Positions 9,808 to 57,763 of a stretch of 57,763 nt of DNA are shown here, piece by piece. Source of the stretch: a virus; IMG/VR virus record IMGVR_UViG_3300045988_077974; one strand, written 5' to 3'. A program made the translations under genes and the position numbers. Numbering within the stretch: the first letter of the stretch is position 1; every line of letters starts with the position of its first letter. The notes under the pieces are model-generated. The model searched no databases and had not been told where the DNA came from. It was given only the letters and a program-made list of their open reading frames with translations.

Positions 9808-9867
9808 AATACTTATCCCTCCTGTTTTTAAAATTTACCCTATTATACACTACAAACGACAGATTGT

Positions 9868-12800
9868 CTATGCATAAAGCGGTCTGCCGTTTGTTTTCTT
9901 AAATTTTTCGTTTGCATCGGTCGTAATTCTGACGATATCACCATCAGAAACGCCCTCGACGTAAAGTGCTTGACCGTTTCCGCTGTTCATTTTGTTGATG
10001 GCAACAACCAGACTTGTAAGCACCGGGGTCATTACATTGTAAACAGCATCCGCAACACCTTTAGATGTAGATGCAATAATCTGGTCATTGTTGATTACTT
10101 TTGTCCTGTTGCCTTGTCTACCGACAAGCTCCGGTTTGCCATTTTCTCTCGCATAAAAAAGCTCACCCATTTTAGGGGTACCACCAGTTTCAAACGTAGC
10201 AATATGGCTTATATTAAAACCGAGCTTTCCTCCCCCTAATGCTTTTGGTATTTTTAATGATATCTTATTAAGATTATCAATAATTTTTCCGTTAATCCAT
10301 CCTATAAGCGTATTAATTCCTTTTTTTAATGTTTCCATAGAAAATATGCTCTTAATTTTTAAAGCCTTATCTCCCCACCATTTTTTAACATTGTCCCACC
10401 ATTTTGCTATCTCATTTGCTTTTGTGGCTAACGCAGATTTTACATTTACTGCTTTTTCTCCCCACCAGTCTTTTACATTTCCCCACCAATTTTTAACCTT
10501 GCTTTTGGTGGTCTCAAAATTTGATTTTACTGAAAGTGCTTTTTCTCCCCACCATTCTTTTACGCCAGTCCACCAGTCTCCTATAGACTTTTTCCATTCT
10601 CCAAATTTTATTTTAATGCTTAATCCCTTTTTGCTCCACCAGTCTTCAACATCTACCCACCAGTCAGCAAATGCTTGCCAAAAATCAGACCAATCCTCTG
10701 AATCCCACTTAAATACATCTGAAAAATTCAAATGATACGCATATTTTTTTTGATCGTCAGACATAATAAGCTTTCCTATTTCTTGACCTAAATGAAATCC
10801 GACAAAAGCTGCGGCCAACGCCGCTACCACTCCTCCAAGAATGCTTGCAGCTGTAGCGGCTGCACCGCTAGAAATGAATGTACCTATAAGTGACGGTATT
10901 TTTGTTACCGCCGTACCGATTGCACTGCAAATGGATTTTGCAATACTAGCGGTACCTCCAGCGTTGATAATTGCAAGTCCTATTTTATCCATTACATAAG
11001 ACGCAAGGTTTTTAAACACGCTCGTCCCAAGTCCTGTAAATTTAAGTGTAGCAAAAATACCGATAATTGCTGTTTCAATAGGTGCTGTTTCCATAGACCC
11101 TTTAATTGCTTTTCCAATGGCTTTTCCAATGGCAATCGCAAGTTTTCCAAAATCTAATGCAACCTTTCCAAAATCAATTCCAGAAAGAAAATTGCCTATA
11201 GATTGACCGACATTTTCCCAGTCAACTCCATCTAAAGCTGTTGTAAGCGTAGTTGCTATACCGCTAAATGTTGAGCTTATGCTTTTGCCAAGTTTTTTCC
11301 ATCCGCTTTTTCCGAATCCTTTGAAAAATCCATTTATTCCATCCGATATTTTAGTGCCTAAATCTTTCCATGTTTGTTTTTTTGATACTAAAGTATAAAG
11401 AGCATTTACTATGGAATCTACAAGCTTTCCAAAGTTTTCCCCAATACCAGATGCATTAATATCGGAAATTAATTGACCAATACGCTTTGCTATCAAACTC
11501 CAATCAGTACGATTTATTGCTGATATCATGCTTTTTAAAATTCCATTTACAACATTATTGAATGTAGAAGCAGTAAGACCTGCATTCCATGAAGTAAAAA
11601 ATCCGTTAATTCCAAGTCCTAAATTTCTTCCAAATTCATCCCACTTAAAAGTAGTCGCAAAACTATTTAGTCCAGTCAGGGCTGTATTTAATGAGTTTGC
11701 AATGGTTTTTCCTAAGTTTGAAAAAAGTCTTGCTCCCTCGCCTCCTGCAAAAAGTCCGTTAAGGAAAGATGCTAACCCCGTTCCAAATCCTGCCGCTTTT
11801 TGATAAATGGATTTCCAGTCAATATCCTCCATAGCCTTTGACAATGTTGTAGATATCTTTTTTCCAAGCTTTTCAAGTGTATCAATATCGCTTTCAAACT
11901 TCTTGAAAATGCTATCTTTCTGTTTCCACTTACCGCCACTTCCAGAGCCAATGTTAGACAGATTCCCAACACTAGTGCCTTTGTCATTTCCTGTACCGTC
12001 ATTATCTTTTCCTTTTGAGGATGTAAGGTTATTCAGACGGTCAAAGCCCTGCAACTGCTTATTGAACTCTTTTTGTGCCTTTGTAGCCTTTTTGGTAGCA
12101 TCGGCTGTATCGTTCGCTCCGTCAGCGGCATCTTCCATATCATCCTTGTAATTTTGAGTAACGCCGCCGCCCTCTTCATATTCCCATCCGAAAATCTTTC
12201 CAAGTGCGTCTCTGGCTGATTTTGCAAATTTATCCAGATGAACTAAAGTGCTGTTCATAGCTTTTACAAACGGCTTAAAAGCGTTAATCGCAATTTGACC
12301 AATCGTAGAGCCTAACTGCTGAAAATTTTGTTTCAGCATACGGGTTTGGTTTGCCCAGGTATTAGAAGTCCTAGAAAAATCCCCCTGTGCAGCACCGGTT
12401 TGTGAAATCACATACTGATAGCGGAGCATTGTCTTTTCCGCTTGTGACATAGATTTAATATTGGCATCTATGCCCTGCTTATGCGCCCACTCTTGAAGAG
12501 TTGCTTGCGTAAGGTCAATTCCATACTTTCTAAGTGGCATTGTTGTTCCGGTAAACACGGATTGCAGAGACTTGGCAACCTTTTCCTGATCTTCATTATA
12601 GAAAGATGCCATATCAGCAGACAGCTTTGTTAATTCAGTAGACATTCCCGACATTTTCTTTTGTGAAAATCCGACTGCTGTTCCCATTGCTTGGAAACGT
12701 CCGGCAATCTGCTTTGCTGTCAATTCAGACATACCGTAGTCTTGAATAGACGTTTTTGCCAAGTCTTCAATCTTGCTTTTATACTTTCCGAAACCAACGT

Positions 12801-14301
12801 CAACGACATTCTGAACCTCTGTCAAATTAGAAGAATAGTCCATTGCTGATTTTAGACCATTGAAAGCTCCCTTTGCCGCATTTACTCCGATAACAAGTTT
12901 TGTAAGCTTGGATGCAATGCCGCCGAATCCACTGCTTAATTTTCTTTGAGAAGAAAATCCGCTTTTTATTCTAGCAAAGAAAGAGCCGATAGACGCACTG
13001 GAAGCTTTTATGTTTTTCCCTATATTAGAAAAAGCCGAAATCATACTTTTTTGGAAAGAACCGGCATCTTTTCCAGTATCATTCAGCGTTTTTTTATAAG
13101 TCTTAAGCTCTGATTCCGCTTTTACAAGCTCTTGATATGATTTATCAAATCCCTCGTTTCCGAAACCGATACCGGCAGATTGCATCTTTTTAAGGTTTGC
13201 CCTTAATTTGCTTACTTTTGCATCTAAACTGTCTGTTTCTGTAATGTCGGTAGTAATTCCTTTTGCTTTCTGATTAAGCGCCGCCTTATACCTCTTTGCT
13301 TCGTCCGTAACTTTTGCCAAAGCCATATATGCAGTATCCCATTCAGAAGTACCCATTCCGAGACCGCTTTGCTCAACACTAGCCAAATACGATTTAGCAT
13401 CCTGCACCATAGCGGTATATCTCGAAATACCGTCTAAATTAGGATTAAGACCAGATTTTAACTCTTCCTTATAGTCTCTTACCTTTTTGTCAAGCTTTTC
13501 AACAGCTAAATAGGCATCATTCCACTCTTTATCTCCGACAGAATATCCTTGACTGGATAATTCCTTGAGGCGTTGCTTCGCATTATTAAGAGCGTCACCG
13601 TACTCATTTGTACTCTTTTCTGCTTTTTTAGTTTCTTTAATTGTCTGCATCAAAGAATCAGAATATCCAACCGCTGATTTCGGAATATAGGAAGTCTTTG
13701 GCTGTGCGGCTTTGGTATCTTTCAGACCGCCATTATCGCTACGGTTAATCTGAATCTGCTTTTGCGATGTTGCCATTTCTTTCATTTTCTTTGAAAGAGC
13801 ATCCATTTTGTTAATAGTTTCAGCAATATCGTACTGCATATTCACAAAAGAGCTTTTACCAGTAGATGCACTACCGGTAGCCAAAGCCTTTTTCTCTTTT
13901 TCTGCTAAATTATCCAGCTTCGCAGAAAGCTTGTCATACTCTTTCTGTAATTGTACGGTAGAACCATCAAACTTTGCATCTTTTCCGATTTCAGAAAACT
14001 TTTCCTGTAATGCTCTGATGGCTTCCATTCCAGTTTTTGTATCGACATTGACTTTTGTTTTTCTCTTTCCGAGATTTTTTACAGACTTATCAATTCCGTC
14101 AATAGCGGCTTTGGCGTCTTTCAGACCGCCATTTTTAACAATGCCATTAATATTTTTAGCAAAATTACCCAGTGCGGATGTATCAACTCCTCCAATAGCA
14201 GAAGATACCGCACCAAGCTTTTTTATAAGGCTATCAAGTGCGGCATTTGCCTTTTTCGCACTCGCTTCAATTTCTAACTCTAAGCTTTCCTCTGTAGCCA
14301 T
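9868..14301 (-). CDS. Tail tape measure protein (1477 aa)
   Basis: Size and position after the chaperones. Long coiled-coil N-terminus, TP901-type core (MSELTAKQIAGRFQAMG), Gly/Ala hydrophobic stretch and Trp-rich WW..KA repeats near the C-terminus. Confidence 0.92.
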   Translation of the reverse strand: MATEESLELEIEASAKKANAALDSLIKKLGAVSSAIGGVDTSALGNFAKNINGIVKNGGLKDAKAAIDGIDKSVKNLGKRKTKVNVDTKTGMEAIRALQEKFSEIGKDAKFDGSTVQLQKEYDKLSAKLDNLAEKEKKALATGSASTGKSSFVNMQYDIAETINKMDALSKKMKEMATSQKQIQINRSDNGGLKDTKAAQPKTSYIPKSAVGYSDSLMQTIKETKKAEKSTNEYGDALNNAKQRLKELSSQGYSVGDKEWNDAYLAVEKLDKKVRDYKEELKSGLNPNLDGISRYTAMVQDAKSYLASVEQSGLGMGTSEWDTAYMALAKVTDEAKRYKAALNQKAKGITTDITETDSLDAKVSKLRANLKKMQSAGIGFGNEGFDKSYQELVKAESELKTYKKTLNDTGKDAGSFQKSMISAFSNIGKNIKASSASIGSFFARIKSGFSSQRKLSSGFGGIASKLTKLVIGVNAAKGAFNGLKSAMDYSSNLTEVQNVVDVGFGKYKSKIEDLAKTSIQDYGMSELTAKQIAGRFQAMGTAVGFSQKKMSGMSTELTKLSADMASFYNEDQEKVAKSLQSVFTGTTMPLRKYGIDLTQATLQEWAHKQGIDANIKSMSQAEKTMLRYQYVISQTGAAQGDFSRTSNTWANQTRMLKQNFQQLGSTIGQIAINAFKPFVKAMNSTLVHLDKFAKSARDALGKIFGWEYEEGGGVTQNYKDDMEDAADGANDTADATKKATKAQKEFNKQLQGFDRLNNLTSSKGKDNDGTGNDKGTSVGNLSNIGSGSGGKWKQKDSIFKKFESDIDTLEKLGKKISTTLSKAMEDIDWKSIYQKAAGFGTGLASFLNGLFAGGEGARLFSNLGKTIANSLNTALTGLNSFATTFKWDEFGRNLGLGINGFFTSWNAGLTASTFNNVVNGILKSMISAINRTDWSLIAKRIGQLISDINASGIGENFGKLVDSIVNALYTLVSKKQTWKDLGTKISDGINGFFKGFGKSGWKKLGKSISSTFSGIATTLTTALDGVDWENVGQSIGNFLSGIDFGKVALDFGKLAIAIGKAIGKAIKGSMETAPIETAIIGIFATLKFTGLGTSVFKNLASYVMDKIGLAIINAGGTASIAKSICSAIGTAVTKIPSLIGTFISSGAAATAASILGGVVAALAAAFVGFHLGQEIGKLIMSDDQKKYAYHLNFSDVFKWDSEDWSDFWQAFADWWVDVEDWWSKKGLSIKIKFGEWKKSIGDWWTGVKEWWGEKALSVKSNFETTKSKVKNWWGNVKDWWGEKAVNVKSALATKANEIAKWWDNVKKWWGDKALKIKSIFSMETLKKGINTLIGWINGKIIDNLNKISLKIPKALGGGKLGFNISHIATFETGGTPKMGELFYARENGKPELVGRQGNRTKVINNDQIIASTSKGVADAVYNVMTPVLTSLVVAINKMNSGNGQALYVEGVSDGDIVRITTDANEKFKKTNGRPLYA

Positions 14302-27770: not shown

Positions 27771-28712
27771 CTAACTCATGACAAATTGTGCCAGTTTCAA
27801 AAGATACTTTTTGTTACAAAAATGAGCTATGCTATAATCTGTCTTACCATTGTGGCTTCTGGCAAAGTGCAGTCTTACCATTTCTTCCAACGGCATCGTT
27901 CCATCTTCTTTTTGTTTTGAAAAATCAAACTCCTCAAAATGATTAAACTCTTTATCGTTTATATGCGATAAAGCTGAGCATACATCAATCAGCGTTTCGC
28001 TTCTAAGTATCGGATGTATCTTCCCTGTTTTCTTCGTAAACAAATCCAGGTAAAGATTAAAAGCATTATTTACTGCTTCTTTCAAATCGCCATGACCGAT
28101 AGATACATCGCAGATATCATAAAAGCGTTTAGACATGTCCTTTTGTTTTTTCTGCAATTCTGATTTTGTGAGTTTTGTTTTTACATCATTTTCTGAAAAT
28201 GATGTATTTACCTTTCCATCATCGTTAGATGATGTATTATCCTCTATGTAGTCTTTGTATGTATTCTCTGCAGTAGTCTCTGGTATTGCTTTGCTGAGAT
28301 TGCCATGTCCATCTGTGCAATTTGCCATGTCGTGAACGCAATCTGCCATATCGTAATTGTCAACAAGACTTTGCAGCTTTTCATAGTCAATAGAATACCA
28401 CTTTGTCTTGTCAATTTTCATTTTGTTATAATTAGCTGTAATGACAATGCCTTTTTTCTCCAGACTGGTTATTGTTCTTCTGATCGTGTCTACTGACCAA
28501 AAATCAAAATCAGTTTCTTTCCATGACTGATATGTATTAAAAATCCAGTATCTTCCATCACGGAAATTTTTATCTGCCTTTTTATTAATTTCAAGCCAAT
28601 AATGTATCTGATTGAGAACAACAGCTTCATTCAGATTACCCAAAACCTTTACAAGCGTTTTTCGGATAAGCAAAACATCGTCTTTGTTTATAAACAGCTC
28701 ATTATAATTCAT
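27771..28712 (-). CDS. Winged-helix DNA-binding protein, replication-initiator/replisome-organiser-like N-terminal domain
   Basis: AVVLNQIHYWL...YWIFNTYQSWKE.DFDFWSVDTIRRTITSLEKKGIVI...DKTKWYSIDYEKL resembles a recurrent phage/plasmid wHTH family, recalled from memory. Confidence 0.45.
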   Translation of the reverse strand: MNYNELFINKDDVLLIRKTLVKVLGNLNEAVVLNQIHYWLEINKKADKNFRDGRYWIFNTYQSWKETDFDFWSVDTIRRTITSLEKKGIVITANYNKMKIDKTKWYSIDYEKLQSLVDNYDMADCVHDMANCTDGHGNLSKAIPETTAENTYKDYIEDNTSSNDDGKVNTSFSENDVKTKLTKSELQKKQKDMSKRFYDICDVSIGHGDLKEAVNNAFNLYLDLFTKKTGKIHPILRSETLIDVCSALSHINDKEFNHFEEFDFSKQKEDGTMPLEEMVRLHFARSHNGKTDYSIAHFCNKKYLLKLAQFVMS

Positions 28713-38583: not shown

Positions 38584-39708
38584 TCAAACAATGTTAATTG
38601 CATCCCCTACCTTGAAAAGTTCCTCTATACCATAATCATCTCCCGGTGTGACATACAGATCAAGTGTTGTTGATATTTTTTGATGCCCCATAATTCTTTG
38701 CAGTGCTTTCGGGTTCATCCCAGCTTGTATGCACCGTGTGGCGAAAGTGTGTCTTAATAGATGCATTGATATGTTTCGTAGTCCGTTTGTCTTACAAACA
38801 TAAGCTATTCTTGTCGATAAACAAAATCTAGGTATACAGCTTCCGTCTGAATTTTTAAAAACCAAATCACCATATACTATGTTTGTAGCATATCCTTTTT
38901 GAGATTTTTTTACAATCCGTAGTATCCTTAACGCTTCCGTTGTCAATGGTATATTTCTTTTTCCGGCTTTCGTTTTTGTTTCGCCTAAAAACCAGCTATT
39001 ATCATTTTTATCTTGAATCAAGCTTCTATTTACCGACAAAGTATTATTTTCATAGTCTATATCGGACCACTTCATGCCAAGAACCTCTCCAACTCTCAAT
39101 CCTGTTTGCAGTACGAATCTGAATATATATTCGTATTTTCCTCCGGTTATTGCTTCTACAAATATTTTTTGCTCATTTTTGCTCATGGCAATCCGTTCAC
39201 GTTCTTCTTTTCCTGTTAATTTAACAGTTTTTCCGCACGGATTTTCTTTTAAAACCTTATTTTGCACTGCATAATCAAACATATTTCCCATTATAGCCTT
39301 TACGATATCTTCTGTTTTATTGCTCATTCCTGCATCTGACATATCATTAAGAACTCTTTGGCACGTTAATGGTATTATTTTTTTAATTTCAACATCTCCT
39401 ATTTTTGGCTTTATATGTTTTTCGTAATTAAAAGAATAAATATATAATGTCCCCTGCTTAACAGTCCTTCTTTTCATATCAATCCATATTTCATACCATG
39501 AATTAACCGTCATATTGTCTGGTTGCTCAATATCGCTATGTTCATTATGGTATTTACTATCAGCAACCCATTTCTGGCATTCTCGAACATTACGAAACAA
39601 TTTCTGCCTACGTTTACCAAATCTATCGGTATATCTGCCAACATAGTAACCGTCCTTTCTTTGAGATATACCCTCTCCAAGCTCCTTGCCTTTCAGACTT
39701 TTTCCCAT
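38584..39708 (-). CDS. int: Tyrosine integrase
   Basis: C-terminal catalytic region ...GLRVGEVLGMKW...HLLRHTFATRCIQAGMNPKALQRIMGHQKISTTLDLYV (R..HxxR..Y). Confidence 0.92.
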   Translation of the reverse strand: MGKSLKGKELGEGISQRKDGYYVGRYTDRFGKRRQKLFRNVRECQKWVADSKYHNEHSDIEQPDNMTVNSWYEIWIDMKRRTVKQGTLYIYSFNYEKHIKPKIGDVEIKKIIPLTCQRVLNDMSDAGMSNKTEDIVKAIMGNMFDYAVQNKVLKENPCGKTVKLTGKEERERIAMSKNEQKIFVEAITGGKYEYIFRFVLQTGLRVGEVLGMKWSDIDYENNTLSVNRSLIQDKNDNSWFLGETKTKAGKRNIPLTTEALRILRIVKKSQKGYATNIVYGDLVFKNSDGSCIPRFCLSTRIAYVCKTNGLRNISMHLLRHTFATRCIQAGMNPKALQRIMGHQKISTTLDLYVTPGDDYGIEELFKVGDAINIV

Positions 39709-42270: not shown

Positions 42271-43116
42271 TTATCCCTCCTGTCTCCTAATAGCGTTTAT
42301 CAACTCATACATATTTTCTTTAGCAATCCTATCTCTCACGCTTTCCTCCGGGAACGGTAATACAAAAGACCTCTCCTTGATACGGTTTACAATGCGATCA
42401 TCGTATCCGAGATTTTCTATGCCGGAATTGCTGGTGTAAATCGTCACATTTTTGTCCATATAGCGTGAATTGATAATTTGATAAAACCTTTCGCTTATCC
42501 ACGCCTTTTCACCCTGTTCCACATCGAAATCGTCAATAATTAACACTTCCGTGTTGGATAACTGGTTAATCAGCTCGCTTTCGCTCTGATATTCCGAGTT
42601 TTTATCCCAGCTTTTCTTGATTTCTGCCAAAATTTGCAGCGAAGTAGCGAATTTAACCTGTATACCCTTGTCCATCAATTCATTAGCAAGACTAACCGCC
42701 ATTCTGGTTTTTCCGCTCCCTTTAGTTTGTGAGTAAATGTACAAGCCCTTCCCTTGCCCTTTTAAGGCACTAAAATTATTTAGGTAATAGTTTATACCTT
42801 TGACAGCATTTCGTGCCGCATTTTGGCAATTAGGGCTATTGTAGGCGGCAATATCAAAACTGCTGATGCGTAATTTGCTAAAATTCGACGGCAAATTAGC
42901 AAATCGCATCCGATTTTCTTCAATCTGCCTCCTGCGGATACCACACTTACACTCCCGGCAGAATGTGTAACCGTCTTTCTCATATTCTTCCCACCCAGTA
43001 TCGTTACATACCGGGCAGGAATGCTTTGGTTCTTCATCAATGTGCCTCTCGGAAGAATTTCTCATAATCTGAATATCCGCCATCACTTTGTCTATTGTCC
43101 TGTCTATTACATCCAT
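42271..43116 (-). CDS. DnaC/IstB-like AAA+ helicase loader
   Basis: Walker A GLYIYSQTKGSGKTRMAVSLANEL and Walker B VLIIDDFD, with an N-terminal CPVC..CREC zinc motif. Start uncertain (43116, 43083 or 43170). Confidence 0.8.
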   Translation of the reverse strand: MDVIDRTIDKVMADIQIMRNSSERHIDEEPKHSCPVCNDTGWEEYEKDGYTFCRECKCGIRRRQIEENRMRFANLPSNFSKLRISSFDIAAYNSPNCQNAARNAVKGINYYLNNFSALKGQGKGLYIYSQTKGSGKTRMAVSLANELMDKGIQVKFATSLQILAEIKKSWDKNSEYQSESELINQLSNTEVLIIDDFDVEQGEKAWISERFYQIINSRYMDKNVTIYTSNSGIENLGYDDRIVNRIKERSFVLPFPEESVRDRIAKENMYELINAIRRQEG

Positions 43117-43798
43117 CATTGCCTCCCTTGTAATTCTTGTCCAGATAATCAACAAACGGTGTGGCAGCACTAAGAAATGTCGTTCCGTGCTTTATGTACT
43201 CCGTAGGCGTGCCTTTCTTTTTGCATTCATCCGCATAATTTCTGACGGCTTCTAAAAGCTCCGCCTCGGAATAACCGCTGTTTACTCTGGAACAGTAACA
43301 CTCATATGCCTTACCCTTGTTGATTTTCCGTGGGTAAATTTTCCAAAATTCCTCAAATGCACATATATATTTCTTTCTTTCTTTACTTCTTACATTCTTT
43401 ATATTCTTGTTTTGTGGTTCGTCTGATGGTTCGTCTGATGGTTCGTCTGATGGTTCACCAAAATTTTCGTACCCTTGATAAACCCCGTAATTTACTACGG
43501 TTATGAGCGTTCCTCTCTTGGTTCGTTCTGTGTACAACATTTGTTCACTTTCCAGTTCACTCAAGTAACGCTTAACCTTGTTCCGAGACCATCGCCAACG
43601 TGACGCTAATTTGTCAATACTGAACATATATGATCCACGCTTCACAGACTTAACAACTCCATCAACCATCATCTTCTTATCATTGTGTTGCATAAGAAGA
43701 AGCAGATCCACCCAGGCACTTCTTTTGTCAAACGGTTCGTTAGATTGCCAAATACAGCAGTCAACCATTTTCCTGTAAAGTTTTATCCATCCGTCCAC
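43037..43798 (-). CDS. DnaD/replisome-organiser-like replication protein
   Basis: The N-terminal WIKLYRKMVDCCIWQS..F..R.AWVDLLLL pattern and the C-terminal FEEFWKIYPRK segment are typical of phage replication organisers. Immediately upstream of the loader. Confidence 0.6.
   Translation of the reverse strand: MDGWIKLYRKMVDCCIWQSNEPFDKRSAWVDLLLLMQHNDKKMMVDGVVKSVKRGSYMFSIDKLASRWRWSRNKVKRYLSELESEQMLYTERTKRGTLITVVNYGVYQGYENFGEPSDEPSDEPSDEPQNKNIKNVRSKERKKYICAFEEFWKIYPRKINKGKAYECYCSRVNSGYSEAELLEAVRNYADECKKKGTPTEYIKHGTTFLSAATPFVDYLDKNYKGGNDGCNRQDNRQSDGGYSDYEKFFREAH
43416..43456. repeat. 12-bp tandem repeat x3.4 (encodes EPSDEPSDEPSDEP linker)
   Basis: ggttcgtctgat at 43416-43427, 43428-43439 and 43440-43451, plus a partial unit. 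Confidence 0.9.
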
Positions 43799-47332: not shown

Positions 47333-47581
47333 TCAATCCTCCTTAATGTGATTTTTGAGGGTTTCAAGAATGCCGGAAAGAATGTCAACCGATTCTTTTC
47401 TGATTTCCTTTTCGCTCATAAGACCTCTTTTGTAAGATCGTTCCACCATTTCTTTTGCCTCGTCTTTTCCGTAATTTTCAGTCAGACTTTCAACCATACC
47501 TTTTGTAAGTGATGAAAATTCTGCCAAAATAATTGTAGTTGTCCCGTTGATTTCAACTTCTCCCATATTTGATTTAATCAT
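47333..47581 (-). CDS. Hypothetical protein
   Basis: ORF track. RBS AGGAGGTAAAAAATT. Confidence 0.55.
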   Translation of the reverse strand: MIKSNMGEVEINGTTTIILAEFSSLTKGMVESLTENYGKDEAKEMVERSYKRGLMSEKEIRKESVDILSGILETLKNHIKED

Positions 47582-48812: not shown

Positions 48813-48830
48813 TACTGCTCCTTTCTGCCT

Positions 48831-48980
48831 TTAATCGTCCTTTTCTTCAAAATCATCGCAACTATCATCATACATAGTTGCTATTCTGTAATTGTCGCTA
48901 TCGGTATTGCGACAATAAAATTCCTTTTCTGTTGTAGAATACTTGTTATATTTGCATTCTCCGCAAATTTCTCTAGCCAT
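48831..48980 (-). CDS. 49-aa Cys-rich ORF (MAREICGECKYNKYSTTEKEFYCRNTDSDNYRIATMYDDSCDDFEEKDD)
   Basis: Hand translation. AAAGGAG RBS. Confidence 0.45.
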   Translation of the reverse strand: MAREICGECKYNKYSTTEKEFYCRNTDSDNYRIATMYDDSCDDFEEKDD

Positions 48981-48992
48981 ATAATCTCCTTT

Positions 48993-49730
48993 CTAAAACG
49001 GACACTCATTAGGATTTTTCGAATCCCAACTTTTCCCTGCTACTGCGACATCTACATTCGCCACAGGAGCGACTTTTTTCATCTTCTTGATAAAACTATC
49101 ACTATCGGAATTTTCACTCGATAAATGGCACATTATGACGTTCTGCAGGCGGTCTGAATAATTCTCCTTGACAAAATCACAAGCCGTGTCGATGGATAAA
49201 TGACCTCTGAAAACGTGATTGTTTTTAGCCGGATTGCTCCAGTCAACCATATCTTTGTCGTAATTGACACCAAGAAGAATATGGTCAATATCCTTAAATC
49301 TCCATTTGATAACTTCGCAATCGGTTATGTAAAGCATTCTCCCCATTTCCTTGTGAGTAATCAGAAAGCCGAATATCGGGCAAGGCTCGCCGTTTGCGTT
49401 TGTATGTGTCCAGTTTCCATCCATTGTTGTTAAATCAAATATTCTTACAGTAAAATAAGAATTTGCTAGAAACTGGTTCATAAGCAAGGTTTCATATGGC
49501 TTACATATTGGAATACCCATAGCTTCAAAATCTTTTACCGACTTGCTATGGTCAAGGTGCCGATGGGTGCATAACACACCCACAACATCTTTAATGTTCC
49601 AGTCTAATCCTTTTTTAATCTCCTTAATCGGTATTCCACAATCAAGGATAAGTGTTTCTCCGCTGTCGGAAGTTAGCGTATAGCAATTTCCGGCTGACGA
49701 TGAACCTAAGCATTTTAATCTCATACTCAC
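48993..49730 (-). CDS. Metallo-beta-lactamase-fold hydrolase (probable nuclease of the recombination module)
   Basis: LCTHRHLDHSKS (HxHxDH) motif, and the C-terminal MCHLS motif. Confidence 0.8.
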   Translation of the reverse strand: MSMRLKCLGSSSAGNCYTLTSDSGETLILDCGIPIKEIKKGLDWNIKDVVGVLCTHRHLDHSKSVKDFEAMGIPICKPYETLLMNQFLANSYFTVRIFDLTTMDGNWTHTNANGEPCPIFGFLITHKEMGRMLYITDCEVIKWRFKDIDHILLGVNYDKDMVDWSNPAKNNHVFRGHLSIDTACDFVKENYSDRLQNVIMCHLSSENSDSDSFIKKMKKVAPVANVDVAVAGKSWDSKNPNECPF

Positions 49731-50065
49731 ACCTCGATTTCTTCATCCCGCGGGAATTGAAAAACATTCATATTGCGATATTGTTTATTAATAGAATTCA
49801 CTTCATCCTCGTTCAATTCCCTTTCCATATATTCAGCGGTACCGTTTGCAATGACTTTCATCACCTCTAATTTACCGTATGCTTCTCTAAGCATTTCCAT
49901 AGCCTTAACCGCTTTTTCTTCGGTTGAATATGTGGCTATCTTTGTACCTTTGCAACCACCAGTAGACGGAACAATCTTTATTACACGTCCATCCATATAG
50001 TCAATAAACAAAGTGCTGTTTTCATATGGATAATCGCATTTCCCATCCTGTGATATAACCCTCAT
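49727..50065 (-). CDS. Hypothetical protein
   Basis: ORF track. Overlapping stop/start. Confidence 0.55.
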   Translation of the reverse strand: MRVISQDGKCDYPYENSTLFIDYMDGRVIKIVPSTGGCKGTKIATYSTEEKAVKAMEMLREAYGKLEVMKVIANGTAEYMERELNEDEVNSINKQYRNMNVFQFPRDEEIEV

Positions 50066-50066
50066 A

Positions 50067-50957
50067 CTACGCCTCCTCCGCTTTCATAAATTCCGGCAAA
50101 TCATCGTTTTCCTCCGCTGTCGCATCGTCAACATCGGTCGCAACGCTGTCGATAACGTCTGATTCGTCAAAATCAACGCTGTTTGCGTTCTGCTCAATAT
50201 CGTACTCGACATCTTTCTCGATCATTTCCTGCTCACTGACAACATTCAAATCGTCAATGTCGATCTCTGTGCCGGTATGCGAATTGTTGATATATTTCAG
50301 AAGCCGGTTTTTCACCGTTTTCATTGCCATCTGATCCGGAAACTTCTGGTGAGTTCCATTTCCATTCTCTTTGTATCCGTACCCCTGCTGCCAAGACTGC
50401 TTAATCTGATCCATCGTCATTACTTCCGAAATAATTTCCCCGTCATCCATAACAGCCACGGCATAAGCACCAATAATGTTATCATTGCTCATATTTTCAA
50501 AGGACTGCTCGTGAGAATCAATCACCGTCTTTGCGTTTTCCTTATGAAATTTGAAGATATCGCCTTTATAAATCACAGAAGCATTGATATCTTTCAGCCC
50601 AAAACGTCTCGCAATGCAGGTGTTTCCGTAAACGGAACGCTGACATTGTAATTTACCGCCATATGCGACTGGATAGCACTGCTTCTTTCTCATAGAAAGA
50701 CCGTCAGTGACCATTTCAATAAGGGCGTTTTCAATACTTGCTCTGCTGCAACTTTGCAAAACAGGCTTTTTATTTCTGTCAGTAGTCTCCTGTAAAATAA
50801 GCATTGCCGACATAAACTCATTGGTATAGTTGTAATCTTTCGGAAACGTCAAACCGAATTGCTCTTTCTGCTTGATCTTTACGACCATTCCCTCTGTGAA
50901 ATCTTTTGCAACCAGTTCTTTGCTTTCTGCTTCTTTAATTTCATTCTCCATAGTCAT
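50067..50957 (-). CDS. recT: RecT-family single-strand annealing protein
   Basis: MRKKQCYPVAYGGKLQCQRSVYG...IIGAYAVAVMDDGE...MTMDQIKQSW is a typical RecT core, with an acidic tail. Confidence 0.85.
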   Translation of the reverse strand: MTMENEIKEAESKELVAKDFTEGMVVKIKQKEQFGLTFPKDYNYTNEFMSAMLILQETTDRNKKPVLQSCSRASIENALIEMVTDGLSMRKKQCYPVAYGGKLQCQRSVYGNTCIARRFGLKDINASVIYKGDIFKFHKENAKTVIDSHEQSFENMSNDNIIGAYAVAVMDDGEIISEVMTMDQIKQSWQQGYGYKENGNGTHQKFPDQMAMKTVKNRLLKYINNSHTGTEIDIDDLNVVSEQEMIEKDVEYDIEQNANSVDFDESDVIDSVATDVDDATAEENDDLPEFMKAEEA

Positions 50958-51982
50958 TCCTCACTTTCAAATAATTCTTTTACATATAAATCCATTGAAT
51001 AACAAAGTTTTACGCAATTTCCGTGTAATGCATGATTTTTCCAGGAATTGTACTTCTCATAAAACTTCTTTTCTATCATTCTTCCAGATTTCACAAGCTT
51101 TACCCATGTTCTAATCTTCTTGCGGATTTTACGTTTATTCGATCCTGTAAGTTTTCTTATGTATTTTCCGTCTTTCGTAATGTAATGATGAAAACCGGTA
51201 AACAGTATCCCGTTTTTAAACGGCAATATTTGCGTTTTCCCATTCAGCGACAATCTGAGACTGGCAACAAATTCCCTTATGCAGTCAAGGCACCACATCA
51301 AATAACCTTTATCTTGGTGGATTAAGTAGAAATCGTCCATATATCGTCCGTATAGTTTTATACCTAATTCTCCGGTAATAAAACGATCTAACCCGTTAAG
51401 CGTCAACAAAGCATAAACCTGTGCAACTTGGTTTCCAAGCGGAAGCCCCAAACCATCTGTGCTGTCTATAAACAAATGATTTAACCACTTCACATATTCG
51501 TCTGTAAAATGATAGTCTACAATGTCTTTCAAAACCTCATGATCTATCTGGTAGAAAAACTTCGTAATATCACATTTAAGAATCCAACCATTAAGACCAT
51601 GCTCTCTGTAAAACTCAAGCATTTGATCTCTTAGACAATCCATTCCGAAATGAGTTCCTTTTCCTTTCTGCCCTGCATAATTGGTTTTGATAAACTCGCT
51701 TTCCAATCTCGGATGCAATATGTTGTCGCACAGACAATGTTGAACAACTTTATCCTTAAAAGAACACGATTTAATCACTCTCTCCTTAGGTTCATAGACC
51801 TTAAATTCATTGTACGGATTCATCCGGTATGTCTGATTTTCAAGCTGTTCTTTTAAAAGATGCAATCCCTCAAGGCTCATTGTCTGAAATTTTGCACTGC
51901 TGCCATTGAATTTTTTACCATATTTAGCTTTCTTATAAGCCTTATACAGATTTTCATAATCACAAATAATATCTTTATCCAT
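50954..51982 (-). CDS. DGR-type reverse transcriptase
   Basis: 342 aa. RT motifs ...ILKCDITKFFYQIDH..., GLPLGNQVAQVYA (resembles the DGR [IL]GxxxSQ motif) and GRYMDDFYLI. Sits directly 3' of a TR whose copies differ at adenines. Confidence 0.9.
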   Translation of the reverse strand: MDKDIICDYENLYKAYKKAKYGKKFNGSSAKFQTMSLEGLHLLKEQLENQTYRMNPYNEFKVYEPKERVIKSCSFKDKVVQHCLCDNILHPRLESEFIKTNYAGQKGKGTHFGMDCLRDQMLEFYREHGLNGWILKCDITKFFYQIDHEVLKDIVDYHFTDEYVKWLNHLFIDSTDGLGLPLGNQVAQVYALLTLNGLDRFITGELGIKLYGRYMDDFYLIHQDKGYLMWCLDCIREFVASLRLSLNGKTQILPFKNGILFTGFHHYITKDGKYIRKLTGSNKRKIRKKIRTWVKLVKSGRMIEKKFYEKYNSWKNHALHGNCVKLCYSMDLYVKELFESEE

Positions 51983-52003
51983 AGTAAAAATTCCTTTGTA
52001 TTT

Positions 52004-52021
52004 ATCCTTTTAGGAAAGGAT
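52004..52021 (-). other. 7-bp hairpin in the TR-RT spacer
   Basis: ATCCTTT-TAGG-AAAGGAT on the plus strand, between the TR and the RT start codon. Confidence 0.6.
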
Positions 52022-52081
52022 GCGCACTTTTTTGTATCTTTTTCCGATTTCGGCTTACTGCCTACTCTAACTGTCTGTGTA

Positions 52082-52157
52082 ATACAGAATGGGCGAACAC
52101 CGTTGTTGTTATTGTAGTTCCTGTTGTTGATATTGCCGGACGAAGCAACAACGGTTT
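52082..52157 (-). repeat. DGR template repeat (TR)
   Basis: About 76 nt. The sense strand is AAC/AAT-rich (AAT ATC AAC AAC AGG AAC TAC AAT AAC AAC AAC) and non-coding, between avd and the RT. It aligns to VR1 and VR2 with mismatches almost only at TR adenines. Confidence 0.9.
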
Positions 52158-52180
52158 ATACAGTGCGCAACCTAATAAAT

Positions 52181-52552
52181 TTATCTTTCTTTATCCTTAG
52201 TTCTCCAAGCAATCGCCATATGCTTAATGTCAGAAACCATCTTCGACCAATATTCCATGCTTTTTGCATTTATGATGTTTAGTTTCATTGATAATTCAAT
52301 GTAAAACAAAAGTTCGTCACAATGCGTTATTGCTTTGGTTTGAAGCTCCGACCGCTCCCTGCGATACAACTTCAAATCCGTTCGATTCGCTTCATACAGA
52401 TATTCATAGATTTCAAGTGCTTTATTTTGCATTTTATCCACAAGAGAAAATCTGTATTTCTTCGGATATCTATTGCAGTTTGAAGTTATCCGCAGCGTAT
52501 GTTCGGCAAGGTCTTTTGCTTTCAAGATTACCTTTAATTCCGTTCCAGCCAT
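52181..52552 (-). CDS. avd: Avd-like accessory variability determinant (four-helix-bundle, 23S rRNA IVS protein family)
   Basis: 123 aa, basic and helical. KAKDLAEHTLRITSN...YPKKYRFSLVDKMQNKALEIYEYLYEAN fits the Avd/IVS-protein pattern. Canonical position between target and TR. Confidence 0.8.
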   Translation of the reverse strand: MAGTELKVILKAKDLAEHTLRITSNCNRYPKKYRFSLVDKMQNKALEIYEYLYEANRTDLKLYRRERSELQTKAITHCDELLFYIELSMKLNIINAKSMEYWSKMVSDIKHMAIAWRTKDKER

Positions 52553-52556
52553 TTAA

Positions 52557-53165
52557 TTACTCCTCTGATTCAAAGATTGAAGAAGAAAAGATACAAAACG
52601 GGCGAACACCGTAGTCGCAATTGTAGTTCCTGATGATGAAATCGCCGGACGAAGAAACAACGGTAACCGAATATTCATAATCGTTGCAAGGTGTACTCCA
52701 AGGAGTAATAAGCCACCACCATTTTTTCTCGTTCGGAATAAGACTTCGATATTTCCTGTATTCATCTACAGTAAGAAGAGAAACGGAATCTTCGCACTTT
52801 TCATATTCCGTCTGACCGTCCAGAGATAACAGATCTCTTTCAAACTTAACGATATTTTCTTCTCCAACTTCATCGGATATCTTTTTGAGAAAATCTCCAT
52901 TCAAATATTCTCTTAAACCGCTCGATTTCCAGTCGTTAGAAGAATCGTCAAACTTCATATCTTCTTCCAAAATTTCACAAAGGCAAGAATAACCATTGTC
53001 TGTAATGTCAATAATCTTCCAGTCAAGACCTGCGATTTTAAAAGTGTCTCCAATTTTAAGGCTGGAAGGGATTTTAGAAACACTTTTCTCCGCTTTCAAA
53101 ATAGCAACATCATTCCTAAGTTCGTTGATCTGATCCTGCAAAATTTTCATTGTTAAATTAGCCAT
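52557..53165 (-). CDS. DGR target protein 1 (VR1 at the C-terminus)
   Basis: C-terminus WWWLITPWSTPCNDYEYSVTVVSSSGDFIIRNYNCDYGVRPFCIF. The overall layout (GD.F..G...W.V......LREYLN..F....vsLLTVDEY...WWW...) resembles DUF6273/CLec-like DGR targets. Alternative start at 53171. Confidence 0.85.
   Translation of the reverse strand: MANLTMKILQDQINELRNDVAILKAEKSVSKIPSSLKIGDTFKIAGLDWKIIDITDNGYSCLCEILEEDMKFDDSSNDWKSSGLREYLNGDFLKKISDEVGEENIVKFERDLLSLDGQTEYEKCEDSVSLLTVDEYRKYRSLIPNEKKWWWLITPWSTPCNDYEYSVTVVSSSGDFIIRNYNCDYGVRPFCIFSSSIFESEE
52591..52666 (-). repeat. DGR variable repeat VR1
   Basis: Aligned by hand to the TR. 9 in-frame substitutions at TR adenines and 2 at non-adenines. Confidence 0.9.
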
Positions 53166-53167
53166 AA

Positions 53168-53776
53168 TCATTCTCCTTTCGATACAAAGATATTAGATTT
53201 CAAGATACAAAATGGGCGAACACCGTTGCAGTTACCGTAGCCCCCGCAGCTGAAATTGCCGGACGAAGCAACAACGGCGATTGAATACTCCCATCCTCTT
53301 TCAGCTGTAGACCACGATGTGCAAGTCCACCACCAATCATTTAACTCGTTATTCACAAGAAGATCATTGTACTTTCTTGCTTCATCAAATGTAATAGGTC
53401 TGACCTTGCATTTAAAACGAGAAAATTCTTCCTGCATATCAACCGATGTCAAGTCGACAGAACATTCAACGATGTTTTCTTCACCAACCTCCGATTCAAT
53501 AATTGGCTGAATATCTTCCTCGATAACCTTTCTAAGATTAGATTTTCTGTAGTCTCTCGTATCATCATCAAATACGATATTTTTTGCCATAAATCCTTTT
53601 GAAATTACTGCCGTTGTTTCTGCATATTCATTCTGATCAAGCACAATAAAATCATGATCTCCAATTTTGAATGTATTGCCCGGATGCAATTCGCAAAGTT
53701 TGACTTTGCTTTTTTTCTCCTCTTCTTCAAGCCTTTTTACCAGTTCCCTTGCCATTTCCAATGTTTTACTATTCAT
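53168..53776 (-). CDS. DGR target protein 2 (VR2 at the C-terminus), paralog of target 1
   Basis: C-terminus WWWTCTSWSTAERGWEYSIAVVASSGNFSCGGYGNCNGVRPFCIL. Same architecture as target 1. RBS GGAGGG. Confidence 0.85.
   Translation of the reverse strand: MNSKTLEMARELVKRLEEEEKKSKVKLCELHPGNTFKIGDHDFIVLDQNEYAETTAVISKGFMAKNIVFDDDTRDYRKSNLRKVIEEDIQPIIESEVGEENIVECSVDLTSVDMQEEFSRFKCKVRPITFDEARKYNDLLVNNELNDWWWTCTSWSTAERGWEYSIAVVASSGNFSCGGYGNCNGVRPFCILKSNIFVSKGE
53205..53280 (-). repeat. DGR variable repeat VR2
   Basis: Aligned by hand to the TR. 12 substitutions at TR adenines and 1 at a non-adenine. Confidence 0.9.
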
Positions 53777-53779
53777 TTT

Positions 53780-55696
53780 TTATCCCTCCATAATTTCCAT
53801 ATCTTTGTTATCAACAATCAGAAGAATCTTCTGACTTTCGATCATATCAATTACTTTCGCCCGGTTCGCTTCATCCAAGCTCTCAACATCATCAATCCAA
53901 ATAGGGCAACGGATTCCGCTCATTTTCTGAATCGAATTACAAATGTCAATCCTGCCAATGATGCGGTTCCCCTTATTGCTCATAGTGGTTAGAATTGACT
54001 TTCCATCCACCATAGGGATGCAATCTGATTTGTAGCCGCCGGATTTTCCGATCTCAAACAATTTCCATTTGACAATTCCGAAATTAGCATTTACGGCATC
54101 AGCTAATTTTGAGTTTTTCACTTTCTCCAAATCCTCAATCAAATGAAGAACCCTCTCCGCATCTGCCTGCTTCTGTGATTTTTCACGCTGCTCTTTTCGC
54201 AGATGCTCTAATCTATCCTCGCAGTCGGAAGTATCTGACTGCGTCAGAAGCTTTTCCCATTCTGCCAATTCTGACCGTATTTCCGTCTCTTCTCCGGCTA
54301 GCATAGTTTTCAAAGCCGAAATGTCATTGTATTTCTCAAGGAATTTCTCCTTTTCGGAAATCTCACTTTCCAACTTCTTGTAATCATCGGTGCTGGTAAC
54401 GTCTCTTCTTTCTTCGGACAGATTGTTTTCAAGCTGCTTAATCTCTTCTGCCAAAATTTTCTTATCAGCTTCGTTATTTTTGTTTAGTTCCTCTAATTTA
54501 GATATTTCTTTGTTGTTTTCCTTGATTTCTTTCTTAATTTTCAAACCGTCACTCTCGATTTTTTTGATCCGATCATTCTTTGACTTCTCAAAATCAGATT
54601 TCAGAGTTTCAATTTCTTCATCCGGAAACTCCCGGTGACACGTCGGACATACAGTCGATTTCTCGTCGAATTGCTCTGATTTCACAGACTGCCAAACATT
54701 AGAAAGCCTTTCTCTCTCCTCGTTCAGCTTAATGTTTTCTTTTTTGTAACCAGAAAGCTCAAAAGTATTTTTCTGTATTTTTACATTAAGCTTTGTAAAA
54801 AGCTCTTCTTTTCTTCCAATCTGTTTTTTAATGTCACTCAATTCTTTTTCCGTTTTCTCATTCGCCTCACGAACCATATCATTAAGCCGAAATTTCATAT
54901 CAAGGATATCGTTCGTCTCCTTATCGTAAGAATCCATAAGATTCTTGTTAGAAGCCTGCTTGTCTTTGTTTTCTTTCAGACGTTCCAGTAAAAAGTTTCT
55001 TTGCAACTCTAACGCCGATACGTCCGTTTCCTGCTTCTGCTTGATCTCAAGCTCTTTCTCTGCGATGCGACCGGAATATGTTGATAATTCCTTTTTCATA
55101 TCGCTGACAATAGATTTGTTCATTGCCGTTATCTCTTCTACCGTATAATCAGCCAACAGCGGCAAAAGGTCTTTCAAATCTTCGTTTCCTGCGGCGATAT
55201 CATAATCGCTAATACTATCCGTATGAGCGAAAAGGTATTTCCTCATTTCGGTTGGCTTCTGTGCGGTAAAAGCGTTGATGTTGCAACACATCTTGACAAT
55301 GTCCATATCAATGCAGAGGTAACCCTTAAAGTCCTTGGCAGTTTTTAGAACGTCGTTAATAAAATACCTGTTATCGTCCTTGTAACTGCTGCCGTCTTTA
55401 CTATATGTCCGCTTCTGAACCTTTTTCATTGTGACTATTTTGCCATCAACACAAAACCTGGCAGTAACGCTAACATCGTCATCAACAGGCACCCCGTTTT
55501 CTTCCCGTCTTACAACCGGCTTCGGTGTCAAATCGTAGTCACAATCAAACAAAAGCCACATATAAGCATTCGCAATAGTGCTTTTTCCAACTCCGTTGCG
55601 ACCGATGATTCTGGTCAAATCGTTGAAACCGACCTTTTCGTAGCCATAAGCCATGAAGTTTGTCATTTCAATGTCAATGATTTTGATTTCTTTCAT
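53780..55696 (-). CDS. SMC/Rad50/SbcC-like AAA ATPase with a long coiled-coil and a CxxC hook
   Basis: Walker A IGRNGVGKSTI, about 350 aa of coiled coil containing CPTC, and a C-terminal ...IWIDDVESLD (Walker B/D-loop-like) motif. Confidence 0.8.
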   Translation of the reverse strand: MKEIKIIDIEMTNFMAYGYEKVGFNDLTRIIGRNGVGKSTIANAYMWLLFDCDYDLTPKPVVRREENGVPVDDDVSVTARFCVDGKIVTMKKVQKRTYSKDGSSYKDDNRYFINDVLKTAKDFKGYLCIDMDIVKMCCNINAFTAQKPTEMRKYLFAHTDSISDYDIAAGNEDLKDLLPLLADYTVEEITAMNKSIVSDMKKELSTYSGRIAEKELEIKQKQETDVSALELQRNFLLERLKENKDKQASNKNLMDSYDKETNDILDMKFRLNDMVREANEKTEKELSDIKKQIGRKEELFTKLNVKIQKNTFELSGYKKENIKLNEERERLSNVWQSVKSEQFDEKSTVCPTCHREFPDEEIETLKSDFEKSKNDRIKKIESDGLKIKKEIKENNKEISKLEELNKNNEADKKILAEEIKQLENNLSEERRDVTSTDDYKKLESEISEKEKFLEKYNDISALKTMLAGEETEIRSELAEWEKLLTQSDTSDCEDRLEHLRKEQREKSQKQADAERVLHLIEDLEKVKNSKLADAVNANFGIVKWKLFEIGKSGGYKSDCIPMVDGKSILTTMSNKGNRIIGRIDICNSIQKMSGIRCPIWIDDVESLDEANRAKVIDMIESQKILLIVDNKDMEIMEG

Positions 55697-57031: not shown

Positions 57032-57148
57032 CTTTTTCTCCTTTCATAAAAACCTTGCCAGTGCCGCCGTTATCGCAAATAGAAATAAAATCTCTATCAA
57101 ACGATCAATTATTTTGTTCTCGTCCATATTCTTTCTCCAAAATAATTT

Positions 57149-57763
57149 CTATTCAAGCTCCACAAATTCTCCGTTTTTTAATCGGTAAAACGTATCTTCT
57201 TTAATTTTTTCTCCGTCAACACATTCTGTTTTGACGCATACCGGAATCAAATAAGAATTATCGTTTTCATTTTTTCTTTCCCATTCAGCCAATGTAATCC
57301 AACTGCCAATTTTTGCTTTTGCAACAGAGTCCATTCCAGCTGCCATTATTACGGAGTGTTTGCCTTCCGATTCAATCTGTGCGTAATCTCCAGAGCTACC
57401 AATCTGCGCGTAATCTCCAGAGCTACCAATCTGTGCGTAATCTCCAGAGCTACCAATCTGTGCGGAATCTCCAGAGCTACCAATCTTTGCGGAATATCCA
57501 GAGCTACCAATCTGTGCGTAATCTCCAGAGCTACCAATCTGTGCGGAATCTCCAGAGCTACCAATCTGCGCGGAATATCCAGAGCTACCAATCTGTGCGT
57601 AATATCCAGAGCTACCAATCTTTGCGGAATCTCCAGAGCTACCAATCTGCGCGGAATATCCAGAGCTACCAATCTGTGCGGAATATCCAGAGCTACCAAT
57701 CTGTGCGTAATCTCCAGAGCTACCAATCTGTGCGTAATCTCCAGAGCTACCAATCTGTGCGGA
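57149..57763 (-). CDS. Repeat protein, C-terminal part (nonapeptide repeats plus 65-aa tail); 5' end leaves the window
   Basis: The frame of track ORF 57149..57346 stays open upstream through every repeat. Hand check gives ...SAQIGSSGDYAQIGSSGDYAQIESEGKHSVIMAAGMDSV... The track ORF 57349..57753 (HRLVALEIT) is a different, probably non-coding frame. Confidence 0.7.
   Translation of the reverse strand, partial: SAQIGSSGDYAQIGSSGDYAQIGSSGYSAQIGSSGYSAQIGSSGDSAKIGSSGYYAQIGSSGYSAQIGSSGDSAQIGSSGDYAQIGSSGYSAKIGSSGDSAQIGSSGDYAQIGSSGDYAQIGSSGDYAQIESEGKHSVIMAAGMDSVAKAKIGSWITLAEWERKNENDNSYLIPVCVKTECVDGEKIKEDTFYRLKNGEFVELE
57373..57763. repeat. 27-bp tandem repeat, about 14 units
   Basis: Units start at 57383. 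Variants are gta/gga, atc/ata and ctgtgc/ctgcgc/ctttgc. Continues at 1..108. Confidence 0.95.

Follow-up and report, generated by a model that had tools for sequence, protein, structure and literature searches.

The window analysed here is the whole 57,763-nt stretch of viral DNA held in IMG/VR as record IMGVR_UViG_3300045988_077974, and all positions are numbered along it. It contains an early recombination operon in which a diversity-generating retroelement (DGR) lies between the gene for a Rad50/SbcC-like ATPase and recT, the gene for a RecT-family single-strand annealing protein (SSAP), with the stop codon of the DGR reverse transcriptase (RT) gene overlapping the recT start. Sequence comparison with related viral loci suggests, with a probability of roughly 0.7, that the DGR is an accessory cassette, i.e. 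a modular insertion in a variable slot between the ATPase gene and recT. The evidence comes from four pairs of occupied and empty loci in which homology ends at the end of the upstream gene and picks up again either some 10 nt short of the end of the RT gene or where the SSAP gene starts, from SSAP alleles shared between phages with and without a DGR, and from the variety of genes found in the same slot.

All genes of the locus lie on the minus strand, in the order Rad50/SbcC-like ATPase, target 2, target 1, avd, template repeat (TR), RT, RecT, 112-aa gene and metallo-beta-lactamase (MBL) fold hydrolase. The features are as follows, with the matches behind each assignment in brackets; the two variable repeats (VRs) lie within the target genes.

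53780..55696, minus strand: Rad50/SbcC/SMC-like ATPase, 638 aa, first gene of the module (AAA_15 6.5e-10; AAA_23; weak Rad50_zn_hook; phrog_77 SbcC-like 1.2e-50)
53168..53776, minus strand: DGR target 2, 202 aa, coiled-coil N-terminus and DUF6273-type C-terminus (phrog_9958 5e-31; weak DUF6273)
53205..53278, minus strand: VR2, in target 2 (comparison with the TR)
52557..53171, minus strand: DGR target 1, 204-aa open reading frame (ORF) (DUF6273 1.2e-10; phrog_9958 1.1e-47)
52591..52664, minus strand: VR1, in target 1 (comparison with the TR)
52181..52552, minus strand: avd, accessory variability determinant, 123 aa (phrog_3206 'Avd protein of DGR' 5.8e-23)
52082..52155, minus strand: TR, 74 nt (repeat comparison with the VRs)
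50954..51982, minus strand: DGR RT, 342 aa (RVT_1 2e-14; phrog_1423 6.6e-99)
50067..50957, minus strand: RecT-family SSAP, 296 aa (PF03837 8.3e-37; TIGR00616; phrog_148 2.1e-55)
49727..50065, minus strand: conserved 112-aa protein between SSAP and MBL (phrog_25456 1.8e-32)
48993..49730, minus strand: MBL-fold hydrolase, 245 aa (Lactamase_B_2; Lactamase_B; phrog_392 1.7e-58)
48858..48881, minus strand: inverted repeat with an 8-bp stem, in the 180-nt gap (48813-48992) past the MBL gene (weak terminator-like match)

The interval between the ATPase gene and recT is a variable slot

Family matches assign the predicted product of recT to the RecT/Redβ family of SSAPs (PF03837, 127 bits against a 24-bit cut-off; TIGR00616, 59.9 against a cut-off of 52.65); a PDB sequence search with it gave no match. 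The ATPase has a Walker A motif (GRNGVGKST) and a CPTC hook-like motif, and the MBL-fold hydrolase is probably the nuclease partner of the module. A recT–Lactamase_B2 context with SMC-like or AAA ATPase neighbours has been described in Firmicutes prophages (PMC8093625), and the module in the window is this known recombination module. We sampled its relatives with a RecT search, which gave 30 viral loci, and with an MBL search (76–91% identity), which gave 70 loci with enough upstream sequence. The order ATPase–SSAP–112-aa gene–MBL was found in all of the RecT-based loci that extend far enough (n=30) and in the 70 MBL-based loci, and the 112-aa gene (cluster C1) occupies the same position in 47 related loci.

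Most of these modules carry no DGR. One was present in only six of the 30 RecT-based loci, all with a RecT at least 96% identical, and four of the 70 MBL-sampled modules had a DGR in the slot while the other 66 had none within 10 kb. In the DGR-less RecT-based relatives the gap between the ATPase and SSAP genes ranges from 0.14 to 1.7 kb and is filled by unrelated small genes. The ATPase–recT interval is a variable slot that holds different small accessory genes in different relatives, and each of the three SSAP lineages that adjoin DGRs (see below) is also found without one.

Some further observations concern the slot and its surroundings. At 57140-57763 (minus strand) the window carries a gene of 9-aa SSGDYAQIG repeats (27-nt unit, 14.5 copies) that runs off the window end and at which the ORF list shows solely a wrong-frame 'VALEITHRL' ORF; homologues of 252–370 aa with varying repeat numbers fill the ATPase–RecT slot of the DGR-less loci L008, L009, L012 and L015. 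In L013, where the slot is also DGR-less, a distant RT fragment (2-550, 28% identical) lies ~4 kb upstream of the ATPase gene, a sign that this early region may hold another RT element unrelated to the first. A PADLOC search also gave a full-length match of the window ATPase to the Lamassu SMC-like protein LmuB (5.9e-25), which we read as a Rad50/SMC-family resemblance and not as a defence system.

Predicted gain and loss of the cassette at gene borders

When L040 was compared with L196, homology ran through the ATPase gene to its stop and came back ~10 nt before the RT stop, with the 2.8-kb cassette as the sole difference. The indel between L036 and L216 consists of the cassette and one small gene, and in the two remaining pairs the cassette stands in place of other genes, amounting to 0.3 kb in L079 compared with L243 and to 1.6 kb in L069 compared with L214. 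Eight DGR-adjacent SSAPs, drawn from all three lineages, are 95–98% identical to alleles of DGR-less phages.

The 12-mer GAAAGNGAGGAA occurs at both cassette borders in L040 (5190-5225 and 8010-8040) and in L079, and marks the empty sites of L196 (8150-8180) and L243. Its codons specify E-S/R-E-E, and it also serves the next gene as ribosome-binding site. A role as a specific recombination site was rejected: we read the 12-mer as a ribosome-binding site within C-terminal codons that results from the way the operon is packed, and the window shows no enrichment for it (5 matches with at most one mismatch, 2.7 expected). It may, we infer, ease exchange at gene borders.

Three observations weigh against modular insertion. 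First, the ATPase allele (at least 88% identical) and the RecT allele (at least 96%) of the window are seen only with a DGR, and for this reason there is no empty-site allele for the exact lineage of the window and the borders of its cassette are undefined. Second, the order RT then SSAP is kept beside three RecT lineages and beside ATPases that are just 30–47% identical, with avd and RT 80–99% identical, and the persistence of this order could reflect selection for the arrangement and not a recombination hot spot. Third, no stable hairpin follows VR1 or VR2 (52530-52610 and 53140-53225, minus strand; DNA folding z-scores of +0.3 and +1.8), so that some other aid to target access is conceivable; the VR of phage BPP-1 has a GC-rich inverted repeat downstream that aids homing, a feature that a locus need not have to be called a DGR.

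The best explanation of the locus is that, in the lineage of the window, the slot holds a complete Avd-type DGR cassette which, to judge from the occupied and empty pairs, would be gained or lost exactly at gene borders. The cassette works like other DGRs, as the adenine-specific TR/VR pattern in the window and in 117 VRs of relatives indicates: the TR RNA is reverse-transcribed with adenine errors, and the resulting cDNA overwrites the 3′ ends of the two tandem DUF6273 targets. The cassette and recT are likely to be co-transcribed, and RecT and the cDNA therefore probably coexist in the cell. The genomes give no sign of a dependence of the DGR on RecT, or of co-evolution between the two.

The cassette is a complete and, on the TR/VR evidence, active DGR

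VR1 differs from the TR at 9 of the 22 TR adenines and at 2 of the 52 other positions, and VR2 at 12 of the 22 adenines and at 1 of the 52 others. The two VRs are the only further copies of the TR in the window, and a C/T difference at repeat position 69, near the 3′ end, sets the TR apart from both of them; it is the one consistent difference that bears on an IMH/IMH* distinction (IMH, initiation of mutagenic homing) like that of BPP-1. The same pattern holds in relatives (73 TRs and 114 VRs), where the VRs differ at 54% of TR-adenine positions as against 3.9% of the others. Read in the frame of the VRs, the TR gives TVVASSGNINNRNYNNNNGVRPFC, with many AAC/AAT codons. Its conservation across the 73 related loci is 80-99%, 70 of them keep 20–23 adenines, and its adenine columns vary less than its other columns (minor-allele fraction 0.03 vs 0.10).

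Both VRs lie 33–36 nt ahead of the target stop codons, inside the DUF6273 matches. Target 1 has 4400 homologues (E 1e-5 or better), among which residues about 175-186 are hypervariable; the closest are 86–94% identical to it, and the differences are almost confined to the ~12 VR-encoded residues. A PDB sequence search with target 1 gave no match, and an AlphaFold2 model from a 19-sequence alignment reached a pLDDT (predicted local distance difference test) score of 56, too poor for a fold search or for assigning the VR-bearing domain to a ligand-binding, C-type-lectin-like fold. The RT gene starts ~100 nt past the TR; its product is 32% identical to Brt of BPP-1, and in the libraries searched no DGR-specific RT model matched it. 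In addition to the phrog_3206 match, avd gave matches to Pfam bAvd and 23S_rRNA_IVP and to NCBIfam DivGenRetAVD (9e-13), all under the cut-off. Together these features make up a complete Avd-type DGR of about 2.8 kb, and the TR/VR differences mark it as active.

It is hardly credible that the RT instead belongs to an Abi-like or DRT-like defence or anti-defence system and that the repeats are coincidental. The RT does have weak, below-cut-off matches to Drt3a, retron and group II intron models, but the differences between TR and VR are adenine-specific both in the window and across 117 VRs of relatives, a pattern that points to DGR action on the 3′ ends of both targets; the cassette includes avd, both VRs sit at the 3′ ends of DUF6273 genes, and thousands of target variants differ almost solely in VR-encoded residues. 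A defence reading of the RT and the ATPase together was rejected on the TR/VR evidence and the module context. A match to the Rfam RT-2 RNA between TR and RT (51974-52079, minus strand) was dropped as sub-threshold (24.7 vs 40 bits); at gathering score it was not reproduced in 9 related loci.

Gene junctions reflect ordinary packing of the phage

The genes of the operon are closely spaced. A gap of 3 nt separates the ATPase stop (53780) from the target-2 start (53776), a 4-nt overlap joins the target-2 stop to the first target-1 ATG (53171), 4 nt lie between the end of target 1 (52557) and the start of avd (52552), and the RT TGA (50956-50954) and the recT ATG (50957-50955) share the sequence ATGA (50957-50954). 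The 112-aa gene follows after 1 nt from the end of recT (50067) and overlaps the MBL gene by 4 nt. A preliminary description made from the sequence alone had given the first four of these junctions, and all of its coordinates were correct on re-checking; it had also placed an MBL-fold hydrolase two genes later, an order (recT, 112-aa gene, MBL) that our analysis confirmed, and its gene identities (DGR, RecT, MBL and SMC-like ATPase) were upheld by family matches and by the TR/VR pattern. Two starts may need adjustment. Target 1 probably begins at ATG 53165 (202 aa), 2 nt past the target-2 stop, because its homologues are 202 aa long, and recT may begin at 50951, a second ATG with a better-placed GAGGA 6 nt upstream.

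The same description called the cassette translationally embedded in the operon. The chain of translational coupling is broken between avd and RT, because the 198 untranslated nt there hold the TR, and packing of this kind is routine in the window: 33 of its 95 minus-strand junctions are at most 10 nt or overlapping, 10 of the 95 are exact 4-nt overlaps, and one third of its genes have a ribosome-binding site in their last codons. The tight junctions, that between RT and recT included, are ordinary packing in this phage, and the 4-nt RT/recT overlap is explained by it, as the last codons carry the ribosome-binding site of the next gene. The statement that no promoter or terminator separates the genes is consistent with the data but not demonstrated, since the scans performed at chance level (30 promoters vs 25.5 expected; 6 terminators vs 5.6 expected). 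The inverted repeat at 48858-48881 may mark the end of the recombination operon.

RT–SSAP adjacency recurs in one lineage of viral relatives

We examined the neighbours of the RT in its viral relatives, taking the best 80 of 556 viral stretches found by the RT search (RT 77–96% identical). In 65 of them, all contigs other than the window, a RecT-family gene comes after the RT, and an ATPase gene lies upstream of the cassette wherever the contig reaches. The adjoining SSAPs fall into three RecT-family lineages, i.e. the type found in the window, a 248-aa type and a 336-aa type. RT and SSAP genes are separated by at most 10 nt or overlap in 29 of the 65 contigs, and a small gene lies between them in the other 36. 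About a dozen viral loci have the cassette in other contexts: past a primase/helicase gene (L104–L108), ahead of a PD-(D/E)XK-like exonuclease gene (L098), or near the gene for a single-stranded DNA-binding protein (SSB; L063 and L087). Average-linkage clustering of RT distances split the in-slot RTs into three groups at 80% identity; one 75%-identity cluster takes in all three, together with 10 of the loci in other contexts, a distribution suggestive of one to three origins of the RT–SSAP juxtaposition. Two of the cassettes past a primase/helicase gene (L104 and L106) have identical RT genes and VRs that differ at 71% of adenine sites. On this sequence evidence, adjacency to an SSAP gene would not be needed for DGR activity.

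In ~33 relatives the gene between RT and SSAP encodes 77–88 aa with an N-terminus like 'MIKSDFG.VE..G' (L035-L089, about 8031-8278). A gene of this type lies directly upstream of recT in some DGR-less relatives, and ~2.5 kb past recT the window has an ORF with a similar N-terminus (47333-47581, minus strand); this gene type may represent a further mobile small gene of such operons.

The preliminary description drew attention to the RT–recT adjacency and offered, as a hypothesis only, that the phage SSAP might assist integration of the cDNA. The adjacency is not unique to the window, as the 65 other contigs show, but it is missing from all 80 of the bacterial cassettes described below, and 66 of the 70 MBL-sampled modules have no DGR. 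For SSAP assistance itself, comparative genomics adds no support, given the shared SSAP alleles, the lineage-bound adjacency, the indels at gene borders and the intact TRs.

Such assistance could take the form of annealing: RecT made from the shared transcript, perhaps helped by the ATPase and the MBL nuclease, would pair adenine-mutagenised cDNA with single-stranded VR DNA at phage replication forks and so raise homing. We consider this unlikely as an explanation of the locus. It is physically plausible, because two independent engineering studies in E. coli needed CspRecT to install BPP-1 cDNA, in combination with dominant-negative MutL (bioRxiv 10.1101/2025.03.24.644984; bioRxiv 10.64898/2026.07.21.739853). 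The arrangement is also suggestive, as RT and recT are on the same strand with a tight junction and probable co-transcription, the order RT then RecT-family gene recurs in the other contigs, in 29 of them with at most 10 nt between, and neither VR is followed by a stem-loop. Reconstituted retrohoming favours targets whose cDNA-complementary strand is the lagging-strand template and is inhibited by ExoI (PMC12875486), both of which resemble oligonucleotide recombineering; lagging-strand-template annealing is a recent pointer to how DGR cDNA replaces the VR.

Against this stand several results. The adjacency is absent from the 80 bacterial cassettes and from four GenBank DGR phages and is bound to one 75% RT cluster, and even among the 65 in-slot loci 36 have a gene between RT and SSAP. 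The SSAP alleles are common to DGR-less phages and show no specialisation, the cassette is gained and lost as a unit, and the cassettes outside the slot (L104 and L106) are equally diversified. When RecT drives integration in E. coli, the TR collects no fewer mutations than the VR, but the adenines of natural TRs are intact. Retrohoming of BPP-1 has been reconstituted in E. coli with no SSAP reported among the components (PMC12875486), and the known DGR accessory genes (Avd, HRDC, MutS-like and CH1; PMC5758913) include no recombinase. Adjacency would in any case be unneeded for help from RecT, because any SSAP gene of the same phage would be co-expressed. It is quite improbable that in this phage lineage RecT, possibly with the Rad50-like ATPase and the MBL nuclease, would materially boost cDNA installation into both VRs on replicating phage DNA. 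If it did, the locus would be the natural equivalent of engineered DGR-plus-recombineering and would provide the first natural host or phage factor for cDNA integration. The comparative data lower the expectation that the RT–recT adjacency is functional. A natural operon in which recT comes straight after a DGR RT gene, and which recurs in dozens of gut phages, offers a ready test bed for the step from cDNA to VR; natural controls are at hand in phages that carry identical SSAP alleles but lack a DGR and in cassettes of this DGR family that lie elsewhere.

The cassette family in bacterial genomes and GenBank phages

The bacterial cassettes, for which we took the best 80 of 409 RT relatives in species-representative genomes (RT 52–82% identical), come from Lachnospiraceae, Oscillospiraceae, Acutalibacteraceae, Faecousia and others, and nearly all consist of one or two DUF6273-type targets, avd, TR and RT. 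A RecT-family gene follows the RT in 0 of the 80, and an SSB gene in about seven. We scanned the larger ORFs within 3.5 kb either side of these cassettes with Pfam (150 downstream ORFs, from loci L110–L168 only, and 123 upstream ORFs). The neighbours include SSB, replication initiators, DNA methylases, ParB-like proteins and terminase, and SSAP families match 7 of the 273 scanned ORFs (Sak 3, Rad52 2, RecT 2). The four annotated GenBank DGR phages (nd12, Brigit, Lelie and Shimadzu) have RTs that are 35–50% identical to that of the window, and in none of them is an annotated SSAP gene found within 4.5 kb of the DGR. In Brigit and Shimadzu the DGR is beside tail and lysis genes, and in nd12 it lies between a structural protein gene, upstream, and an amidase gene.

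The cassette family lives in early replication/recombination regions generally, with a RecT neighbour in one lineage only. As a side observation, the small DUF6273 targets (coiled-coil N-terminus, ~200 aa) were always in early replication/recombination regions in ~160 loci. The location itself could have a rationale in the timing of replication without any role for the SSAP: early co-expression would open single-stranded target DNA to the cDNA, or the targets would be early proteins, and RecT would be one possible neighbour among others. This explanation is tentative, and it is compatible with modular insertion, not exclusive of it. The identifiable neighbours in the ~160 loci are ATPase/SSAP/MBL genes, SSB, replication initiators, primase/helicase, methylases and, at the edge of the early region, terminase. 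In the window ~38 kb separates the DGR from the tail genes, whereas the distant DGR phages nd12, Brigit, Lelie and Shimadzu carry theirs beside tail, structural and lysis genes (the flanks in Lelie are mostly unannotated), and retrohoming has a replication-direction bias (PMC12875486). However, the location could be inherited from one ancestral insertion that was then reshuffled among accessory-gene slots, and the structure model of the target is too poor to be used.

Modular insertion, our preferred reading, makes this large DGR family (4400 target homologues and 409 RT relatives) a discrete cassette of Clostridia phages, situated away from tail genes and moving in and out at exact gene borders, which would be useful in its own right.

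The phage and its genome layout

The window is the 57.7-kb genome of a temperate siphovirus-like phage, and the host is probably a member of the Lachnospiraceae. The genome is laid out as follows.

close to the left end of the window: anti-repressor and repressor
4961-14301: tail genes, including the tape-measure gene
up to 24783: major head protein, portal and large terminase
middle of the window: replication genes and integrase
about 56000-48993: early recombination operon

Among species-representative genomes, the RTs nearest to that of the window come from an Agathobacter sp. metagenome-assembled genome (MAG; 82% identity) and from Lachnospiraceae MAGs (73–77%). A DNA search against GenBank phages matched one short unannotated fragment and nothing else, and as the best RT among those phages is only 49.7% identical at the protein level, the phage has no cultured close relative. 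The integrase gene sits in the middle of the early/replication region and there are two DnaD-like replication-initiator genes, giving a mosaic layout (38584-39708, 27771-28712 and 43037-43798, all on the minus strand). A tblastn search with the SSB of relatives as query found no SSB gene in the window.

Comparison with known systems

Retron recombineering is an engineered pairing of RT-made single-stranded DNA with a RecT-family annealase. The retron RTs and their multicopy single-stranded DNA (msDNA) have an architecture unrelated to the TR/VR/Avd system.

Closer in its components is the engineered combination of a DGR with recombineering (DGRec, bioRxiv 10.1101/2025.03.24.644984; synthetic retrohoming, bioRxiv 10.64898/2026.07.21.739853), which co-expresses the RT, Avd, the TR RNA and a RecT-family annealase, as the hypothesis of the preliminary description envisages. 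The engineered systems differ in being artificial, in using dominant-negative MutL (indispensable in one study), in needing no IMH and in rewriting the TR as well as the VR, whereas the TRs of the natural operon are intact and it has no mutL-like gene.

The recombination genes themselves resemble the recT–Lactamase_B2 module (PMC8093625) in that RecT is beside an MBL-fold gene, the neighbours include an SMC-like/AAA ATPase, and there is no YqaJ or DUF3799 exonuclease. That module has been described chiefly for Bacillales prophages, whereas the host here is probably one of the Lachnospiraceae, and the copy in the window differs further in having no SSB found and a DGR inserted in it.

The DGR of BPP-1 (mtd–avd–TR–brt) shares with the cassette the gene order target–avd–TR–RT, which Wu et al. 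(PMC5758913) class as type B1. In both, mutagenesis is adenine-specific, the target gene has its VR at the 3′ end, and the TR is AAC-rich. The RTs of the two are only 32% identical and their genome neighbours differ: BPP-1 has one tail-fibre target in a structural region, with a hairpin after the VR, and the window has two tandem 200-aa DUF6273 targets in an early recombination operon, with no hairpin after its VRs.

The DGRs of the Faecalibacterium prophages Lelie, CP11, Roos and Pioen (PMC11792537) offer a further comparison. The RT of Lelie is 41% identical to that of the window, the flanks of its DGR, mostly unannotated, include a downstream peptidase but, over 4.5 kb, no SSAP gene, and one of its two targets is large. 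All four prophage DGRs nevertheless resemble the cassette in having the VR at the C-terminus of a DUF6273 target, and those of Lelie and CP11 also resemble it in having two targets per DGR.

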